NCBI GenBank assembly: GCA_964354125.1 | Contig: CAYGXW010000001.1 | Location: 22,474-86,473, forward strand | DNA from: an uncultured Dehalococcoidales bacterium | Lineage (GTDB): Bacteria > Chloroflexota > Dehalococcoidia > Dehalococcoidales > G020351185 | Direction of reading: 5' to 3' | Length of the DNA stretch: 64,000 nucleotides | Shown here: piece after piece, positions 10,825 through 59,552 of the stretch | How the letters are laid out: each line of letters opens with the position of its first letter | Numbering within the stretch: the stretch's first letter is position 1 | Notes under the pieces: model-generated | The model's database searches: none | The model's input: the letters and a program-made list of their open reading frames with translations, nothing else | What the model was told of the DNA's origin: nothing | Program-made: the position numbers and the translations under genes

Positions 10825-10845
10825 CACTGGCTTAAACAAAGAGAT

Positions 10846-10880
10846 ACATAGGCTGGGGTAACCCCAGCCTATGTATTTTT
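10846..10880 (+). terminator. Rho-independent terminator
   Basis: A perfect 13-bp stem ACATAGGCTGGGG/CCCCAGCCTATGT with loop TAA, followed by ATTTTT. Confidence 0.75.
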
Positions 10881-52279: not shown

Positions 52280-52369
52280 TGGCGGAGGGGGTGGGATTCG
52301 AACCCACGGTCCCCTTGCAGGGACAACGGTTTTCAAGACCGTCTCCATAGGCCACTCGGACACCCCTCC
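52280..52369 (-). tRNA. tRNA-Ser (anticodon UGA), long variable arm, CCA encoded
   Basis: The reverse complement folds as GGAGGGG..., with anticodon stem-loop ACGGT-CTTGAAA-ACCGT, variable arm TGTCCCTGCAAGGGGAC, T-arm GTGGG-TTCGAAT-CCCAC and 3' end CCCCTCCGCCA. Confidence 0.9.
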
Positions 52370-52389
52370 AGCGTGAAGCGAACAAGAGT

Positions 52390-52418
52390 ATTATACCCAG
52401 AAGATGTTAAAATTGCTA
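52390..52418 (-). promoter_or_regulatory. possible promoter of tRNA-Ser
   Basis: On the minus strand: TAGCAA (52418-52413), 17 nt, then TATAAT (52395-52390). This lies about 20 nt upstream of the mature 5' end. Confidence 0.3.
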
Positions 52419-52433
52419 TCAGGAGGTTGAGCT

Positions 52434-53081
52434 ATGAAGCAATATTACAGGATGGTTCAGGAGAAGATACTGGTGCAAAGGGATATAATCTGCTCCCTGC
52501 TGAAAGACCCGCAGATAATCGGTGATTATTATGAGGCGATAATCAGGGATGCGGTCAGGGAAAGCATATCAAAATCTTTTGATGTCGGGCGCGGGGTAAT
52601 CCTATCTGAAACGGGAAACAGCAGTCGTGAGTGTGACATAATTGTTTACAGCGCCGCCGAATATGGGCCGCTGTTTGTATCGGGGGATATAGTGGTGGTA
52701 AAGCCTGAGGCAGTGAGGTGTGTTATTCAGGTAAAGGGCACTCTAAGCAATGATAGCATTATGGATGCCATAAAAAATTTGACCTCAGTTAGCCGATTAA
52801 GAGAAGGTATATGGAAGCTGATAGTTGGCTTCAAAACCGATGTTCTTTACGAAACTATAGTTAAAAATTGCGCCCAGTCAAAGGTTGTAAATGGTGTGTT
52901 TGTACTTTCCACCATCAGTAGAAGAGAGAAAGAAGACATTACCTTACAGATGCAGAAGTTCATCGGGCTTCTAAAATCAATTACCGCCCCGGGTATGTAT
53001 CAAAAGACCGATGCCGGTAACTATCTAGCCCTTGAAGCCACCGGAAGAGATAAATTTGAGGGTGTGCCATTCCCAGAGTGA
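52434..53081 (+). CDS. PD-(D/E)xK-fold (restriction-endonuclease-like) protein, resembles the family I recall as DUF6602
   Basis: GDYYEAIIRDAV...FDVGRGVILSETGNSSRECDIIVYS...GDIVVVKPEAVRCVIQVKGTL fits the D...(D/E)-x-K core layout. Strong SD (AGGAGG). Confidence 0.55.
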   Translation: MKQYYRMVQEKILVQRDIICSLLKDPQIIGDYYEAIIRDAVRESISKSFDVGRGVILSETGNSSRECDIIVYSAAEYGPLFVSGDIVVVKPEAVRCVIQVKGTLSNDSIMDAIKNLTSVSRLREGIWKLIVGFKTDVLYETIVKNCAQSKVVNGVFVLSTISRREKEDITLQMQKFIGLLKSITAPGMYQKTDAGNYLALEATGRDKFEGVPFPE

Positions 53082-53098
53082 GTAATGTAGTAAAATAA

Positions 53099-53941
53099 TT
53101 ATAATTTAATTCCTGCTTTTGATGCCTTTAATTTTAAGTAATTTATAAATGCTGAACATGATACTAGCATAAATTTTGCGTCTTCAAAATCTAATTGGGA
53201 TTCATCTAATAAAGAGTGACGTATCCCATCCGCATCGCTTGTATATCCGTATAGTTTACAAAACGCCTGTTCTAAAGCAAGATGTAGAGGCATTTTATCC
53301 TTGATTACTCTTAACGCTTTCCCTAAAGTTGCTTTGTTATTACCTGTTATTATTCTACAAATTGCCTCTACGGCACTTATTGATTCTTTAATAGAATTCC
53401 TGTAATCAGGGCTTTGCTTATCTGAGAGAAAATCTAGTGCTGTTTTTAGATGTATTGTAACGGGTTTAAGAGAATCTGTAGACTCTAGTGCCTCTTCTAT
53501 TTCGGATATTTCTTCTTCAGAGGTTATAGGTGCTATTTCTCCGCCAATAAACCGCCAACCAGACACTTCACGTTCTAATATATAATTACAGTAGTTTGTG
53601 AATTTCTCATTTATACCTTGGATAGAATAGTTACCAACGACAAATTGTATAAAATCGTAAACTTCAAACCATTTGAAGGAAAAGAAATATTCTTTTACTT
53701 CTTTTCTTGCATCCTCATAATATGTAGGTATGGTATCAAAGGGTTTCTTGAAGTAATCCAGCCATAAATTAAAAAATAGTGAATAGAGATTTTTATGTTC
53801 TTTGAGCCACCCACTGCCTGTGGTTTGCAAATAGTGAATATCCAATGCGTTCCATAGCCCAACACGTAAATCGTTATCCATATTATCAATTTGCATAACA
53901 TTCTTTATTGGCCTATAACCATATTTTTCAGAAAAAAGCAT
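53099..53941 (-). CDS. AbiJ-like protein (AbiJ N-terminal domain plus C-terminal HEPN-type domain)
   Basis: N-terminus FSEKYGYRPIKNVMQIDNMDNDLRVGLWNAL and C-terminus SISAVEAI...KLYGYTSDADGIRHSLL...AKFMLVSCSAFINYL match my memory of AbiJ-NTD/HEPN proteins. G+C is about 30 %. Confidence 0.6.
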   Translation of the reverse strand: MLFSEKYGYRPIKNVMQIDNMDNDLRVGLWNALDIHYLQTTGSGWLKEHKNLYSLFFNLWLDYFKKPFDTIPTYYEDARKEVKEYFFSFKWFEVYDFIQFVVGNYSIQGINEKFTNYCNYILEREVSGWRFIGGEIAPITSEEEISEIEEALESTDSLKPVTIHLKTALDFLSDKQSPDYRNSIKESISAVEAICRIITGNNKATLGKALRVIKDKMPLHLALEQAFCKLYGYTSDADGIRHSLLDESQLDFEDAKFMLVSCSAFINYLKLKASKAGIKL

Positions 53942-53946
53942 AATTT

Positions 53947-55188
53947 TTACCTAACCACCTTCTCCCCCACATAAGGCTGCAAAACATCTGGTATAACTAT
54001 ACTACCGTCGGATTGCTGGTAGTTTTCCATTACGGCAATGAGAACCCTGGGTAGTGCCAGCCCGGAGCCGTTTAGGGTGTGGACGAACAGGGGTTTGCTT
54101 TCCGGGGAGGGGCGGTAGCGGATGCTGGCCCGGCGAGCTTGAAAATCACCGCAGTTGGAGCAGGAGCTTACCTCCAGCCACTCGGCACATCCCGGAGCCC
54201 ACATCTCAATATCATAGGACTTGGTGGAGGCAAAGCCCAAATCAGCGGTGCATAGCTGCTTTACCCGGTAGGGTAGCCCAAGCTTCTGGCAGACACTTTC
54301 GGCATCATTTACCATCTTCTCAAGCTCATCATCAGAGCTTTCCGGTTCGGTGAATTTATAAAGCTCAACCTTGTCAAACTGGTGGCCCCTTTTTATGCCC
54401 CTTGTGTCCTTGCCGGCGGACATCTTTTCCCTTCGGAAACAGGCGGTGTAGGCGACATAGTAGATGGGTAAGACCCCGGGCGTTATGATTTCCTCACGGT
54501 GGAGGTTGGTGAGGGGCACTTCAGCCGTAGGCACAAACCACAGGTCATCCTCATCATCATGATACAGGTTATCGGCAAACTTGGGCAGGTTGCTGGAACC
54601 GACCATGCATTCCCTTTTGACCATAAATGGCGGATAGACCTCCTGGTAGCCGTGCTCTCTGGTGTGGAGGTCAAGCATAAAATCAATAAGGGCTCTCTGC
54701 AGACGGGAACCTAATCCCTTGAGGACATAAAAGCGGGTGCCTGATAGCTTGACCCCTCTTTCAAAGTCAATAATGCCCAGCTCTTCACCCAGTTTCCAGT
54801 GGGGTACCGGCGGAAAATCAAACTGCGGTAACTTACCCCAGGAGCGCACTACAATGTCATCGTCTTCATCTTTGCCAACCGGCACTGAAGGGTGTGGTAT
54901 GTTGGGCACTCGCAGTAGCAGGTCTTCAAGTTGACTTTCCAGATTCCTCAGCTCTTCCTCAAGAGACTTTATCCGGCTACGAAGCTCGCGCCCTTCAACC
55001 TCAACATCAGCCTTTCTTTCTCTGGCTATCTCTTTACGCTCTCGTCTTGCCTCTTCCAATTCCAGAAGCTTCCGGCGGCGGGAAGAATCAAGTTTAAGGA
55101 TTTCGTCTAAGGGGGCGCTATCCTGACGGTTGACTACCGCCTGCCGCACCAGTTCTGTATTGTCACGGATAAACTTTAGGTCAAGCAT
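53947..55188 (-). CDS. serS: seryl-tRNA synthetase
   Basis: N-terminal coiled-coil arm (MLDLKFIRDN...) and class II motifs (FRRE, GLALPR). Confidence 0.95.
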   Translation of the reverse strand: MLDLKFIRDNTELVRQAVVNRQDSAPLDEILKLDSSRRRKLLELEEARRERKEIARERKADVEVEGRELRSRIKSLEEELRNLESQLEDLLLRVPNIPHPSVPVGKDEDDDIVVRSWGKLPQFDFPPVPHWKLGEELGIIDFERGVKLSGTRFYVLKGLGSRLQRALIDFMLDLHTREHGYQEVYPPFMVKRECMVGSSNLPKFADNLYHDDEDDLWFVPTAEVPLTNLHREEIITPGVLPIYYVAYTACFRREKMSAGKDTRGIKRGHQFDKVELYKFTEPESSDDELEKMVNDAESVCQKLGLPYRVKQLCTADLGFASTKSYDIEMWAPGCAEWLEVSSCSNCGDFQARRASIRYRPSPESKPLFVHTLNGSGLALPRVLIAVMENYQQSDGSIVIPDVLQPYVGEKVVR

Positions 55189-55214
55189 AATCTAACTTAC
55201 CCTATCTCCTTTAT

Positions 55215-55273
55215 CCCCTTCCCCTTAGCAAGGGGAAGGGGGAAGATTTTGGAAGAGGGGCGAAGCCCCTCTT
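55215..55273. repeat. double-hairpin intergenic element, copy A
   Basis: Hairpin 1 (55215-55241): CCCCTTCCCCTT-AGC-AAGGGGAAGGGG. Hairpin 2 (55253-55273): AAGAGGGGC-GAA-GCCCCTCTT. The same architecture recurs at 58755-58813. Confidence 0.8.
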
Positions 55274-55310
55274 GGACGCCCCTTTTCAGTCTTACCCTCA
55301 TACCAGTTAT

Positions 55311-55754
55311 TTACCAGTATCGCTTGCATTTTAGGAAGCTGTCAACCCCTGCCTTCTTGAGTATTTTAAGATTTGTTAGTTGAGCATCACCATGAAATGG
55401 TTTCAAGGAGTCAAGCTTATTACAGGTTTCAAAACCGTCGCATTGCCAGCAGCCGCTAATACCCTTCTTCTGGCAGCACTTTCTTATCTTGCAGAAGGGT
55501 GGACCACCCCCACCTCTACATGCTCTCTTGCAGCGAAATTTTACCAGCGCCCCCAGTACTTCATAACATTGCTGGTAGTTTTTTAATACGGTAAAGAAGG
55601 GTTCCTGGGACATCAACTCCGCCTGGTTATCAAACCTTGCCTTTCTCAGTTCTTTTCTGAGGTCTCTAGCTAAATCGGCAATCTTACCCTGATAGATAAA
55701 GCAGTCACCACAGTAGAGACCACAGCAGGCGACCAATTCTTTATCATCAGCCAT
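55311..55754 (-). CDS. Cys-rich protein, resembles the family I recall as DUF3795
   Basis: N-terminal ACCGLYCGDC plus further Cys clusters (CKRACRGGGGPPFCKIRKCC...CWQC). Confidence 0.6.
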   Translation of the reverse strand: MADDKELVACCGLYCGDCFIYQGKIADLARDLRKELRKARFDNQAELMSQEPFFTVLKNYQQCYEVLGALVKFRCKRACRGGGGPPFCKIRKCCQKKGISGCWQCDGFETCNKLDSLKPFHGDAQLTNLKILKKAGVDSFLKCKRYW

Positions 55755-55760
55755 AGTTTC

Positions 55761-56402
55761 CTATTCCTTATACATCCCCTGAATGTCACGGCAATAGTTG
55801 CCTTCCGGCGTCTCAACTACTATGTAATAGAACTGTTTGTTTACCGGGTTCTGTTCCAGGAAAGCCTTGGCAGAAGCGGCGTCGGGTGCCTTGTGAACCC
55901 GATAAGTCATGGTGGTACCATACCTTTGCACGCAGTCTTCCCTGACAAACTTAACCTGGGATGGTTTAGCCTCTTTTGCTTTAGCTGCAGGGGCGGCACG
56001 TCTCTCTGGCTCCTGGTCGTTCTTTCGCTGACCACCATGTTTGGCGAAGCTCTCCTTGGTTTTTTGCCATAGTTCATGTGTCAGGTCGTCACCGCAAATA
56101 ACTGCCTCATATTTACCTTGCTCTGTTTTGTAGTAGCCGAAAATCAAAACCTCGGTACATATTAGTTTTTGAGAATTATCCGCGATGTGGATGCAAGGTA
56201 ATTCCAGCAGGGCTTTTCTGGCATCTTCATCGTTATCAAAGGTGTACATGACGAAGGGGTCTTTCTTTGGCGAGCTTATGCGAGCCATCCAGTAGGAACT
56301 GGCGATGTCCAGGGTATCATGGCGCGTTCCCTTATTATCCTTTTCGGTGAAGATTTTAGGCGGTTTCTCCTTTTCTCCGAACAACTTGTCTAAAAAACCC
56401 AT
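55761..56402 (-). CDS. hypothetical protein with two similar small domains joined by a basic/Ala-rich linker
   Basis: 213-aa ORF located 12 nt downstream of the lysS stop. I recognise no family. Confidence 0.5.
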   Translation of the reverse strand: MGFLDKLFGEKEKPPKIFTEKDNKGTRHDTLDIASSYWMARISSPKKDPFVMYTFDNDEDARKALLELPCIHIADNSQKLICTEVLIFGYYKTEQGKYEAVICGDDLTHELWQKTKESFAKHGGQRKNDQEPERRAAPAAKAKEAKPSQVKFVREDCVQRYGTTMTYRVHKAPDAASAKAFLEQNPVNKQFYYIVVETPEGNYCRDIQGMYKE

Positions 56403-57956: not shown

Positions 57957-58733
57957 CTATAGTAAAGCTCCATGACTTTGCTGTTTTAAGGCATCCAGCC
58001 AGGCGGCTGACTTTATTTCTTTTTCCAGGAGGTATTTAATATAATTCCTTGTTATTCCTTCAAGCTCATCGGATAGAACACGATTCATTTTTAACCTATT
58101 AATAATACTATAATCGCTATCCTGTATCAGCCTTAATACCTTTAACCCATTAACCGAAAGGGGGTAGCTGAAGGGCTGGTCTTGACTGCAATCGGGGCAT
58201 AGTATACCACCGGCACTGGAGCAGAAATAGTTAGTGGTGGATTTTAGCTGATGGTGGCATGAAACACACTGTTGAAGTCGGGGGCGGTAGCCAACTTGCT
58301 CAAGGAGGTGCAGCTCAAAATAACGCAGGATAAGTTCCTTATCTCCACCCTGGAAAAGTTGCTCCAATGTCTCAAGTAGCAGGCTGAACAGTGGGTAATC
58401 TTCAATATGGTCGGCGGTAAACTGGTTAACCAGCTCGGTAGTATAAAGAGCGTATGAGGTAAGCTCAAGGTCACTCTTAATTGGCAAAAAACTGTTGAGC
58501 GTCTGGCTGCCGGTTATGGTATCCAGATTCCGCCCCCTAGCTAGAGATACCAGGCTATAGGTCAGCAGTTCCAGGTGACCCGATAGCTTGCTTCTTGGCC
58601 GCCTGACCCCCTTGGCTACCGCCTGAATCTTACCCAGATGGGGAGTGTATAGGGTAAGGATTCTATCCGCCTCACCCAGCTTGGTTTTTTTAATGATTAT
58701 GGCTTCGGTTTGATAATTGCGCGGTTTGGTCAT
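57957..58733 (-). CDS. recO: DNA repair protein RecO
   Basis: N-terminal OB fold (EAIIIKKTKLGEADRILTLYT...G) and a zinc module (CVSC...CPDC). Confidence 0.85.
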   Translation of the reverse strand: MTKPRNYQTEAIIIKKTKLGEADRILTLYTPHLGKIQAVAKGVRRPRSKLSGHLELLTYSLVSLARGRNLDTITGSQTLNSFLPIKSDLELTSYALYTTELVNQFTADHIEDYPLFSLLLETLEQLFQGGDKELILRYFELHLLEQVGYRPRLQQCVSCHHQLKSTTNYFCSSAGGILCPDCSQDQPFSYPLSVNGLKVLRLIQDSDYSIINRLKMNRVLSDELEGITRNYIKYLLEKEIKSAAWLDALKQQSHGALL

Positions 58734-58754
58734 ATTTGAACCTCACCCTCTGTA

Positions 58755-58813
58755 TCCCCCTCTCCTTTGGAAGGAGAGGGGGAATTATTGGGAAGAGGGG
58801 CTACGCCCCTCTT
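58755..58813. repeat. double-hairpin intergenic element, copy B
   Basis: Hairpin 1 (58755-58783): TCCCCCTCTCCTT-TGG-AAGGAGAGGGGGA. Hairpin 2 (58793-58813): AAGAGGGGC-TAC-GCCCCTCTT. Confidence 0.8.
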
Positions 58814-58902
58814 AGACTCCTCAAATATTGTCTAAGGCTTTGCCCCTTTTTGAGCTCTCCCCTATTGTCTCCCTCTCCTATATCTATATATTTATATTTC
58901 CA

Positions 58903-58921
58903 CTTCCCTTGCTAAGGGAAG
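58903..58921. repeat. third, related hairpin (inverted copy of the copy-A hairpin-1 type)
   Basis: CTTCCCTT-GCT-AAGGGAAG. The loop GCT is the complement of the AGC loop at 55227-55229. Confidence 0.55.
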
Positions 58922-58940
58922 GGGGTTAGGGGAATGGATT

Positions 58941-59552
58941 TCAAAACTCCTGCCTGCCCTCAAGGGCGTGGGTCAGGGTGACATCGTCGGCATATTCCAG
59001 TTCGGTGCCGAAGGGAAGCCCACGAGCTAAGAGTGTAACCCTGATGCCCAGGGGTGAGATGAGTTTATTGAGATACATAGCGGTAGTTTCCCCCTCAAGG
59101 GTGGGGTTGGTGGCTAAAATTACCTCATCTATATGGCTACCTTTTAGCCGTCCTAGGAGCTCCTTGATTCTTATATCTTCGGTGCCGACTCCCTCGGTGG
59201 GGGAGATGGCGCCGTGCAGTACATGGTACAGCCCTTTATAGGCTCCTATATGCTCTAGAGCCAGGATATCCTGGGGCTGTTCCACGATGCATATTTTATT
59301 CTTATCCCGCTCATAGCTGTTACAAATGGGGCAGATTTCAGAGTCGGTGATATTAAAACAACTGGAGCATAGCTTGGTCTTTTGCCTTAAAGATAGTATA
59401 GCTTCAGCCAGGGTTTTGGCTTGTTCACTGGGGGCGCGGAGAAGGTAATAAGTCAGCCGCTGAGCGCTTTTGGGACCAATACCAGGTAGCTTTGATAGTT
59501 CCTGGATGAGCTTGCTTACCGAGTCAGCGGTGGTCGCCGGATTCAGATCCAA
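58941..59552 (-). CDS. recR: recombination protein RecR
   Basis: Contains [12 protein letters not shown] (HhH), a C4 zinc finger ([16 protein letters not shown]) and a Toprim domain. Confidence 0.95.

Follow-up and report, generated by a model that had tools for sequence, protein, structure and literature searches.

Introduction

What kind of element sets the same pair of hairpins before both serS and recO in the genome of an uncultured Dehalococcoidales bacterium? The question is raised by a stretch of 64,000 nucleotides (hereafter the window; GenBank assembly GCA_964354125.1, contig CAYGXW010000001.1, positions 22,474 to 86,473 of the forward strand), in which two adjacent hairpins occur upstream of serS (copy A) and again between recR and recO (copy B). 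An earlier note on this DNA had described them as a recurrent intergenic element whose first stem shows a compensatory change between the copies, and had listed as possible roles a REP-like (repetitive extragenic palindromic) mRNA stabiliser, a terminator lacking a U-tract, a protein-binding site and a ribosome standby or decoy element. Comparison with related genomes suggests that both loci are probably copies of a dispersed intergenic repeat of Dehalococcoidales, about 90 nt long, in which two potential purine-motif triplex motifs of the intrastrand type are combined on the G-rich strand.

Intrastrand triplex repeats, named BoxC, PIT or TM, have been known for 25 years; they fold in vitro, folding in vivo has not been detected, and their relevance in vivo is an unsettled question. 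The repeats of this kind in E. coli are too uniform for covariation. Two classes of intrastrand triplex motif are distinguished, class I being arranged as 5'-reverse-Hoogsteen, purine and pyrimidine blocks, and class II as 5'-pyrimidine, purine and reverse-Hoogsteen blocks (Holder et al., 2015; PMC4666352). Throughout this text the element is read along the window's minus strand, which is its G-rich strand and the sense strand of the flanking genes; module 1 denotes hairpin 1 with its 3' G-rich tail (class II), and module 2 denotes hairpin 2 with its 5' G-rich flank (class I).

Covariation of the stems and of the mirrored third strands

The loci compared in this work span 8–12 kb and come from many different genomes. 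An unbiased set of copies was obtained from 80 loci selected through RecO relatives only. These RecO-anchored loci (407 kb) hold about 88 element copies, or roughly one per 5 kb, all but a few of them intergenic, outside long open reading frames (ORFs). The covariance model R1, built on the 90-nt unit, scores about 90 bits on the G-rich strand and 25–30 bits on the opposite strand, a difference which marks the element as asymmetric.

Among 102 distinct copies from these loci, 97.2% of the stem cells are paired and 20 of the 21 pairs show double-sided changes, values reached in none of 500 shuffles and compared with 62–72% pairing in slid registers, with the reservation that the alignment was fitted to the model and that the copies are related. 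The helix of hairpin 1 is paired in 96.5% of its cells across the family. The compensatory change in hairpin 1, which the earlier note had read from two copies as a sign of selection on pairing, is therefore general, and that inference is upheld.

Each hairpin is accompanied by a third, G-rich segment, mirrored and co-varying, which lies beyond what had been described before, as does the decayed third copy listed below. When the stem of hairpin 1 changes, the 3' tail changes with it, as the mirror image of the purine arm, in these and in further pairs:

purine arm GGAGAGGGGG, 3' tail GGGGGTGAGG
purine arm GGGGAAGGGG, 3' tail GGGGATGGGG
purine arm AAGGGAGGGGG, 3' tail GGGGGAGGGTT
purine arm AAAGGGGG, 3' tail GGGGGATTTT

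The G/non-G agreement of module 1 is 0.916 in mirror orientation and 0.70 under a direct-repeat reading. Among 14 distinct stem types the mirror agreement is 0.85, against 0.715±0.03 for permuted tails (0/10,000) and about 0.6 in slid registers; arm G stands opposite tail G in 89/101 cases, and arm A opposite tail A or T in 26/34. The arm classes of module 2 likewise have mirrored 5' flanks at a constant 5-nt linker (arm GAGGGG with flank GGGGNG, GAGAGG with GGAGAG, GAAGGGG with GGGGTAG, and GAGGGA with AGGGAG). In the triad test on the unbiased set, module 1 scored 0.862 against 0.751±0.011 with flanks swapped between copies, and module 2 scored 0.779 against 0.712±0.011 (0/1000 for both).

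The pairing observed (G.G-C, A.A-T and T.A-T, third strand and purine strand being antiparallel) obeys the rule of the purine-motif triple helix; a pyrimidine-motif reading on the C-rich strand accommodates only half of the residues seen opposite A. We know of no copying mechanism that generates mirror repeats, and the interpretation of the two G-rich flanks as a direct repeat or target duplication was rejected, since each flank co-varies with its own hairpin arm and not with the other flank. Because the third G-rich segment mirrors the purine arm and co-varies with it, the element is placed among the intrastrand triplex motifs.

Potential triplex motifs and element copies in the window

Class II motifs were scored by ITxF-like criteria: a reverse-Hoogsteen block on the 3' side that runs antiparallel to the purine block, G.G-C and A/T.A-T triads, a stem of 6–15, at most one mismatch, and loops of 1–6. 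A pyrimidine block, a loop and a complementary purine block on one strand are present in hairpin 1 of both copies, and the third block is present in copy B (13 triads, 1 mismatch) and in the family at rates of 62/88 and 64/100. The ITxF-style scan of the window returned four matches, compared with 0–1 of any class in shuffles, copy B being the sole G/C-rich strict class II match. Pass rates in the family are 70% for class II, about 67% for class I and 52% for both; for class I, 59/88 copies pass with at most one mismatch and 25/88 with none, at six triads, the minimum length, where chance matches are common.

The features of the window copies are as follows:

55195..55285, minus strand: copy A in full, the composite element that precedes serS (R1 model score 87.0 bits, E 9e-26; full-length match, minus strand only)
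55277..55282, minus strand: copy A, third strand of module 2, the 5' G-rich flank GGGGCG, mirroring the purine arm GAGGGG at 5/6 positions (C opposite A)
55276-55272, minus strand: copy A, 5-nt linker TCCAA of module 2, overlapping the first AA of the hairpin 2 stem
55253..55273, minus strand: copy A, hairpin 2, AAGAGGGGC-TTC-GCCCCTCTT, Watson-Crick core of the class I module
55242..55252, minus strand: copy A, AT-rich spacer CCAAAATCTTC
55215..55241, minus strand: copy A, hairpin 1, CCCCTTCCCCTT-GCT-AAGGGGAAGGGG, Watson-Crick core of the class II module
55198..55214, minus strand: copy A, linker ATAAA (55214-55210) and 3' G-rich tail GGAGATAGGGTA (55209-55198), which mirrors the purine arm, 2 of the 12 triads being mismatched
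58736..58825, minus strand: copy B in full, the composite element separating recR and recO (R1 model score 90.4 bits, E 6e-27)
58817..58822, minus strand: copy B, third strand of module 2, GAGGAG, followed by the linker TCTAA, mirroring GAGGGG at 5/6 positions
58793..58813, minus strand: copy B, hairpin 2, AAGAGGGGC-GTA-GCCCCTCTT, with the same stem as copy A
58739..58783, minus strand: copy B, class II motif with pyrimidine block TCCCCCTCTCCTT, loop CCA, purine block AAGGAGAGGGGGA, loop TAC and reverse-Hoogsteen block AGAGGGTGAGGTT (ITxF-style scan, 13 triads, 1 mismatch, loops 3 and 3)
58874..58944, plus strand: decayed third copy in opposite orientation (covariance model, 20.3-20.8 bits; stem 58903-58921)
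58900-58939, plus strand: module 1 of the decayed copy as read from the sequence, with pyrimidine block 58900-58910, loop 58911-58913, purine block 58914-58924, linker 58925-58928 and reverse-Hoogsteen block 58929-58939

Read in the direction of the window, hairpin 1 is CCCCTTCCCCTT-AGC-AAGGGGAAGGGG in copy A (55215-55241) and (T)CCCCCTCTCCTT-TGG-AAGGAGAGGGGG(A) in copy B (58755-58783), in both cases a perfect polypyrimidine/polypurine stem of 12–13 bp with a 3-nt loop. Hairpin 2, AAGAGGGGC-N3-GCCCCTCTT, has the same stem at 55253-55273 (loop GAA) and 58793-58813 (loop TAC), and its pattern occurs exactly twice in the 64 kb, against 0.08 occurrences expected. The positions of the two adjacent hairpins given previously, and the identical stem with different loop of hairpin 2, were thus borne out. 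The recurrence of the two-hairpin unit also stands; its extent, formerly set at 55205-55285 and 58755-58813, had to be enlarged to that listed above. The class II module of copy A is slightly degenerate, as it passes the relaxed test only, and its module 2 flank belongs to the family class of arm GAGGGG with flank GGGG[TAC]G and constant 5-nt linker.

An exhaustive scan for perfect hairpins found three of polypyrimidine/polypurine type in the 64 kb, all in the two intergenic regions of copies A and B; the third is shorter, with a perfect 8-bp stem at 58903-58921, and belongs to the decayed copy. This copy abuts the recR stop codon and has a hairpin 2 remnant near 58834-58848. The recR-recO spacer (58834-58944) also holds fragments of further copies, for example AGGAGAGGGAGACAATAGGGGAGAG on the minus strand.

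Copy A is flanked by a gene of the DUF3795 family (55311-55754) and serS (53947-55188), and copy B by recR (58941-59552) and recO (57957-58733), all on the minus strand according to Pfam. The co-directional context, with hairpin 1 ending 26 nt before the start codon of serS and 21 nt before that of recO, had been given correctly. A promoter-like sequence, TTGACA-18-GATACT, is found at 55316-55345 (minus strand), within the 3'-terminal part of the DUF3795 gene and a short way upstream of copy A; if this promoter is real, copy A would lie in the 5' untranslated region (UTR) of serS. Promoter-like sites in the region are no more numerous than in shuffles, and the idea of a promoter within or beside the element was set aside.

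Three further observations concern the window. On the plus strand, at 55240-55273 and 58779-58813, the G-run at the end of hairpin 1 and the spacer also score, weakly, as the third strand of a class I motif with hairpin 2 (8 triads, 1 mismatch). This motif was set aside, as it probably results from base composition and from the stem being near-palindromic. At 10844-10876 lies a perfect palindrome of 16 bp around a 1-nt centre (ATACATAGGCTGGGGT-A-ACCCCAGCCTATGTAT), which is not of this family (model score 15 bits). In the region 52280-53941, a DUF6602 gene (52434-53081, plus strand) and an AbiJ_NTD4 gene (53099-53941, minus strand) converge between tRNA-Ser(tga) (52280-52369) and serS, and this pair may be a small defence islet beside a tRNA gene.

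Distribution and consensus of the family

The hairpin 2 pattern, scanned in one genome per species, was found at no fewer than 120 loci, so that the element is not restricted to the two copies from which the earlier note had proposed a genome search. Among the matches listed, 89/120 are labelled Chloroflexota, mostly metagenome-assembled genomes (MAGs) of Dehalococcoidales, and in 83/127 a polypyrimidine/polypurine hairpin of the hairpin 1 type adjoins hairpin 2 at equal spacing, with conserved flanks. Two of the MAG loci retrieved in this way align to other parts of the window at 69–76% identity, which places the window in a relative of these Dehalococcoidales.

In the order of the G-rich strand, the element of about 90 nt consists of the 5' G-rich flank, a 5-nt linker, hairpin 2, an AT-rich spacer of 7–14 nt, hairpin 1, a 5-nt linker and the 3' G-rich tail. 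The family consensus reads GGGGYG-TYTAA-GAGGGGC-GNA-GCCCCTC-TT-[AT-rich, 7-14 nt]-CCCCCTCTCC-ttga-GGAGAGGGGG-AtaMA-GGGGGTGAGGT; a consensus class I module is GGGGTGTCTAAGAGGGGCGAAGCCCCTCTT.

Variants of this plan were also observed. One subfamily carries a palindromic insert of about 28 nt, CATGATAGGAATACATATCCATATCATG, in the loop of hairpin 1, with stems and tail retained (L142:5312-5420, L143:2-106, L199:5309-5413, L133:421-527 and L024 near 3230), and another has a loop of about 30 nt and an extended stem CCAAAC/GTTTGG (L014, L087, L101, L102, L107 and L119). In a symmetric variant, one hairpin 2 (AGAGGGGGC-GAA-GCCCCCTCT) is common to two opposed hairpin 1 modules and the mirrored 5' flank is lacking (L182:6715-6834, L129:4550-4667 and L138:5019-5138). 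Full composite elements were also seen on contigs from MAGs labelled as Bathyarchaeia, Deltaproteobacteria, 'uncultured bacterium' or Planctomycetota (L009, L019, L026, L078 and L093), which may reflect mis-binning or mislabelling, or else a broader host range.

Turnover and gene context

Crude longest-ORF gene calls place 92 copies in sense and 20 in antisense orientation between co-directional genes; a further 13 copies have divergent and 15 have convergent neighbours. The G-rich strand is the sense strand in about 80% of copies; 20–25% are antisense, many of them intact. Copies usually end 8–40 nt before a start codon, without a fixed element-to-start distance, and no common function was found among the neighbouring genes. 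The GC skew of the window suggests that its plus strand is the leading one, so that both copies are oriented with the genes rather than with the lagging-strand template, an observation to which two copies lend little weight.

Occupancy of the recR-recO junction varies among relatives:

empty: L140 (16-nt spacer), L139
one sense copy: L127, L148, L132, L183, L198
opposed pair: window, L174, L182, L188

The opposed pair after recR is in all four cases a reverse-plus-forward pair. In about 10 of 22 relatives serS is preceded by a sense copy that ends 7–23 nt before the ATG, the copies being of differing stem classes, and no copy is present in the closest relatives (L123 and L124) and several others; in L123, lysS is followed by serS after 9 nt. 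Junctions scored as empty often keep a remnant of the 3' tail, and L146 holds 2.5 tandem copies. The element is gained, lost, duplicated and eroded, as reported for the E. coli motif TMECO. A specific link with serS or recO is not supported, the element lying beside unrelated genes in both orientations and being absent from these junctions in close relatives (L123, L140, L151 and L194).

The junctions themselves show other rearrangements. At recR-recO in L146 and L150, the last ~35 nt of recR (GACCCGAGCCATCGAGGG.AGGCAGGA.TTTTAG) are duplicated downstream of an inserted segment, which looks like a cassette insertion at the recR 3' end, and an ORF of about 200 codons (MIIEHKEDISSNFEGTIIDIETIGEF...) lies between recR and recO in many relatives. 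Between lysS and serS, the DUF3795 gene (55311-55754) and a 213-aa ORF without Pfam match (55761-56402) are absent in L123, the nearest relative; L124 has the 213-aa ORF only and L186 DUF3795 only, so that the gene content of this junction is variable.

Proposed explanation and alternatives

Triad covariation and the chemistry of purine-motif triplexes both point towards folding of the G-rich strand at the level of DNA. On opening of the duplex in replication, transcription or repair, this strand would fold into two Watson-Crick hairpins, each of which would be clasped in the major groove by its adjacent G-rich segment through reverse-Hoogsteen G.G-C, A.A-T and T.A-T triads. From sequence comparison we infer that the selected fold is a triplex, and that it forms in DNA and not in RNA, since purine-motif triplexes exclude RNA strands (Semerad and Maher, 1994, as cited in PMC4666352). 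Such a fold is in line with the intact antisense copies and with G.U not being enriched. The sense bias of about 80% would mean that the folding strand is kept off the transcription template, or that the element spreads via single-stranded DNA. The element would then be an unstable repeat whose effects on neighbours such as serS and recO are incidental, with no dedicated regulation. A terminator or a dedicated translational switch is made unlikely by the lack of a conserved U-tract, of a fixed start distance and of a shared neighbour function; a role at the RNA level, or one coupled to transcription, may still exist in view of the sense bias and of the higher integrity of copies upstream of co-oriented genes. 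A REP-like route of spread is a further lead, given the GT-containing motif immediately 5' of hairpin 2, which is not uniform.

Several points weigh against the DNA triplex. The window copies are imperfect, copy A failing strict class II (2 mismatches in 12) and both class I flanks matching at 5/6, and in vivo footprinting with dimethyl sulfate found no triplex at TMECO in E. coli (PMC4666352). The sense bias is strong (92 against 20 in co-directional contexts, by the same crude calls), is lacking in TMECO, and would also result from a transcribed RNA element; class II integrity is 73% upstream of co-oriented genes against 51%, which hints at some link to 5' regions. The count behind the lack of a G.U-compatible mismatch excess on the G-rich strand (T.G 26 against C.A 37) is noisy. 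Finally, the copies share descent, which makes the permutation tests overstate independence, and the covariation signal is carried by only about 14 stem classes in module 1 and 4–5 in module 2.

The strongest of the competing readings, which we nevertheless regard as unlikely, is an RNA-level REP-like element, transcribed in polycistronic or 5'-UTR RNA, whose two stable hairpins protect mRNA ends, punctuate operons or attenuate transcription, the flanks having an RNA role. The orientation of most copies between co-directional genes, their usual position shortly before a start codon, their higher integrity upstream of co-oriented genes, the dominance of both hairpins in the predicted RNA fold (z -2 to -5) and a weak likeness to the Rfam family GA-cis (25.4 bits) speak for it, and many REPs are thought to act as RNA (PMC3733652). 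Plain RNA hairpins, however, leave the mirrored, co-varying flanks unexplained, and neither a conserved U-tract, nor G.U enrichment, nor an Rfam family at threshold was found; the exclusion of RNA from purine-motif triplexes and the antisense copies, many of them intact, also count against it. RNA folding of both strands is uninformative because the stems are near-palindromic. Somewhat less likely still is a REP or miniature inverted-repeat transposable element (MITE) proper, in which the hairpins are recognised by a single-strand-DNA transposase (REP-associated tyrosine transposase, RAYT, or IS200-like Y1) and cut at a tag 5' of hairpin 2, the flanks serving enzyme recognition and not a triplex. 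Copy number, intergenic sites, presence/absence polymorphism and opposed dimers fit this, single-strand-DNA transposition is expected to give orientation bias, and a G-T is conserved immediately 5' of hairpin 2. The tag was GTAG in 30 of 73 unbiased copies, AGTC or AGTT in 24, CGTC in one and absent in 15, at 0–4 nt from the stem; copy B has AGTC, and copy A reads CGTC-T-stem(AA…TT)-CCA (5' part at 55274-55280), as in CGTC-type REPs (PMC3733652). Yet this tag is neither uniform nor at constant distance, mirror covariation with the arms is not predicted by enzyme recognition, and, as empty sites retain the 3' tail, the mobile unit is not cleanly bounded. Among the roles listed in the earlier note, a REP-like one fits best; its interpretation is upheld in part, the element being recurrent, structured and REP-like but no device specific to serS or recO.

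The remaining readings are all highly improbable. Control of downstream translation, with an anti-Shine-Dalgarno-like arm of hairpin 1 pairing a Shine-Dalgarno (SD)-like arm, or with the G-rich tail as an SD or standby site, would draw on AAGGAG and CUCCUU in the arms, on the copy B tail GGGTGAGG, which ends 7 nt before the recO ATG, and on tails such as GGGGGAGGG that include GGAGG; the distance from tail to start codon is, however, not constant and in most cases too long (about 17 nt in copy A, the mode lying near 24 nt past the model end), copies are also antisense and between convergent genes, and close relatives express the same genes without the element. Unrelated neighbours, both orientations, a variable start distance and junctions empty in close relatives leave the SD/anti-SD decoy suggested earlier without support. 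A G-quadruplex or i-motif, in which four G-tracts (two purine arms and two flanks) form a quadruplex competing with the hairpins, might be imagined for types with four G4 tracts (GGGGAAGGGG-ATACA-GGGGATGGGG); it was rejected for the main types, the tracts of the commonest one being arranged 2-1-5 and 5-1-2, which fits the mirror/triad rule and not equal G-tracts, and for TMECO nuclear magnetic resonance (NMR) favoured triplex over quadruplex (PMC4666352). Hairpin 2 as an intrinsic terminator of the upstream gene would accord with T-runs that often follow the same hairpin outside Chloroflexota (L031, L106, L108 and L114) and with family copies reading CTCTTTTTAAT. This too was rejected: no terminator-like site is predicted, and no T-run follows, at either window copy, as the earlier note had recognised in denying them the status of classical terminators, and five or more T in the 8 nt after the stem occur in just 15/82 and 23/96 copies (18–24%). 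Its alternative of a terminator without U-tract is not supported either, the related PIT elements of E. coli having shown no promoter or terminator activity (Hoyne and Maher, 2002, as cited in PMC4666352).

Significance

The many stem variants of this abundant Dehalococcoidales family amount to natural compensatory-mutation data for both hairpin and third strand, and hence provide a direct evolutionary test of the relevance of the triplex fold. The main value of the family lies here, as natural three-way covariation could settle whether triplex folds are selected in vivo. It is tempting, albeit rather doubtful, to regard this covariation as the first comparative evidence of selection on a purine-motif intrastrand triple helix in living cells, and the class I plus class II unit as a functional DNA structure and not an inert repeat. 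On that view the composite unit could serve as a recognition fold for a putative single-strand-DNA enzyme that spreads it, or could block or mark transcription or replication in Dehalococcoidia in a strand-specific way. In practical terms, the element occupies a sizeable share of the intergenic DNA of streamlined, mostly uncultured genomes, marks rearrangement-prone junctions and can lead annotation astray where terminators, SD sites or small RNAs are concerned. The element may also serve as a lineage marker, its presence on Bathyarchaeia, Deltaproteobacteria or Planctomycetota bins possibly flagging mis-binning.

Comparison with known systems

At the Rfam gathering threshold no match was found in the window or in 20 related loci, and a relaxed scan returned, apart from noise, a sub-threshold match of GA-cis (RF02987) to copy B on the sense strand (58747-58824, minus; 25.4 bits against a gathering value of 34.7), which aligns both hairpins and the GAUACA linker. 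The two share a pair of hairpins in equal order, the first aaggggCGAAGcccctt-like, with GAUACA after the second; the outer stem of the RF02987 model is, however, not formed in copy B, and copy A has no match. With H-DNA the element shares a homopurine mirror repeat, made up of purine arm and G-rich flank around a 4–5 nt centre, but it carries the complementary pyrimidine arm on the same strand, so that one strand completes the fold, and its tracts are short (6–13 nt).

The REP sequences and bacterial interspersed mosaic elements (BIMEs) of the GTAG and CGTC superfamilies (Di Nocera et al., 2013; PMC3733652) are likewise short, G/C-rich, high-copy intergenic hairpins, mostly between co-directional genes, with opposed dimers and strain variability. 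Hairpin 2 resembles them in its 9-bp stem starting with two A-T pairs and in having a GT-containing motif immediately on its 5' side, which is GTAG in about 41% of copies and CGTC in copy A. Unlike in REPs, the tag is neither uniform nor at a set distance, and each unit has two different hairpins and mirrored G-rich flanks. A MITE structure was not recognised, both ends being G-rich on one strand and therefore mirrored, not inverted; filled and empty sites, set against each other, show no target-site duplication, these sequences being too diverged for certainty.

The closest relatives are the BoxC/PIT elements, studied in E. coli as the class II motif TMECO, with the pattern CCCTCNCCC-N3-6-GGGNGAGGG-N3-GGGNGAGGG, which is intergenic, occurs in opposed pairs, marks unstable intergenic sites and, as single-stranded DNA, folds to a triplex by circular dichroism and NMR (Holder et al., 2015; PMC4666352). 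The main text of that study makes no mention of Chloroflexi or Dehalococcoidia. Like TMECO, the present element has a pyrimidine arm, a complementary purine arm and a mirroring G-rich strand as three consecutive blocks of one strand, with G.G-C and A/T.A-T triads; its stems are G/C-rich and 9–13 nt long with short loops, and it is multi-copy, intergenic, frequently in opposed pairs, degenerate or deleted in close relatives and unconnected with the function of flanking genes. A single family member, L025, fits the TMECO pattern; the window copies, with stems CCCCTTCCCCTT and CCCCCTCTCCTT, do not. The two are distinct sequence families, as R1 matches the E. coli copy at just 12 bits, over the hairpin alone. 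They differ further in that class I and class II motifs are here joined back to back in about 90 nt, whereas the E. coli copy used for comparison has a class II motif by itself, without a hairpin 2 partner; in the many stem variants with three-way covariation, TMECO being near-identical across copies; in the sense-strand bias of about 80%, for which TMECO has no counterpart; and in a much higher density, with about one copy every 5 kb in relatives where E. coli has about 23 in 4.6 Mb. The element is thus a new composite (class I plus class II) variant of the known intrastrand-triplex (BoxC/PIT/TM) repeats, abundant in Dehalococcoidales.

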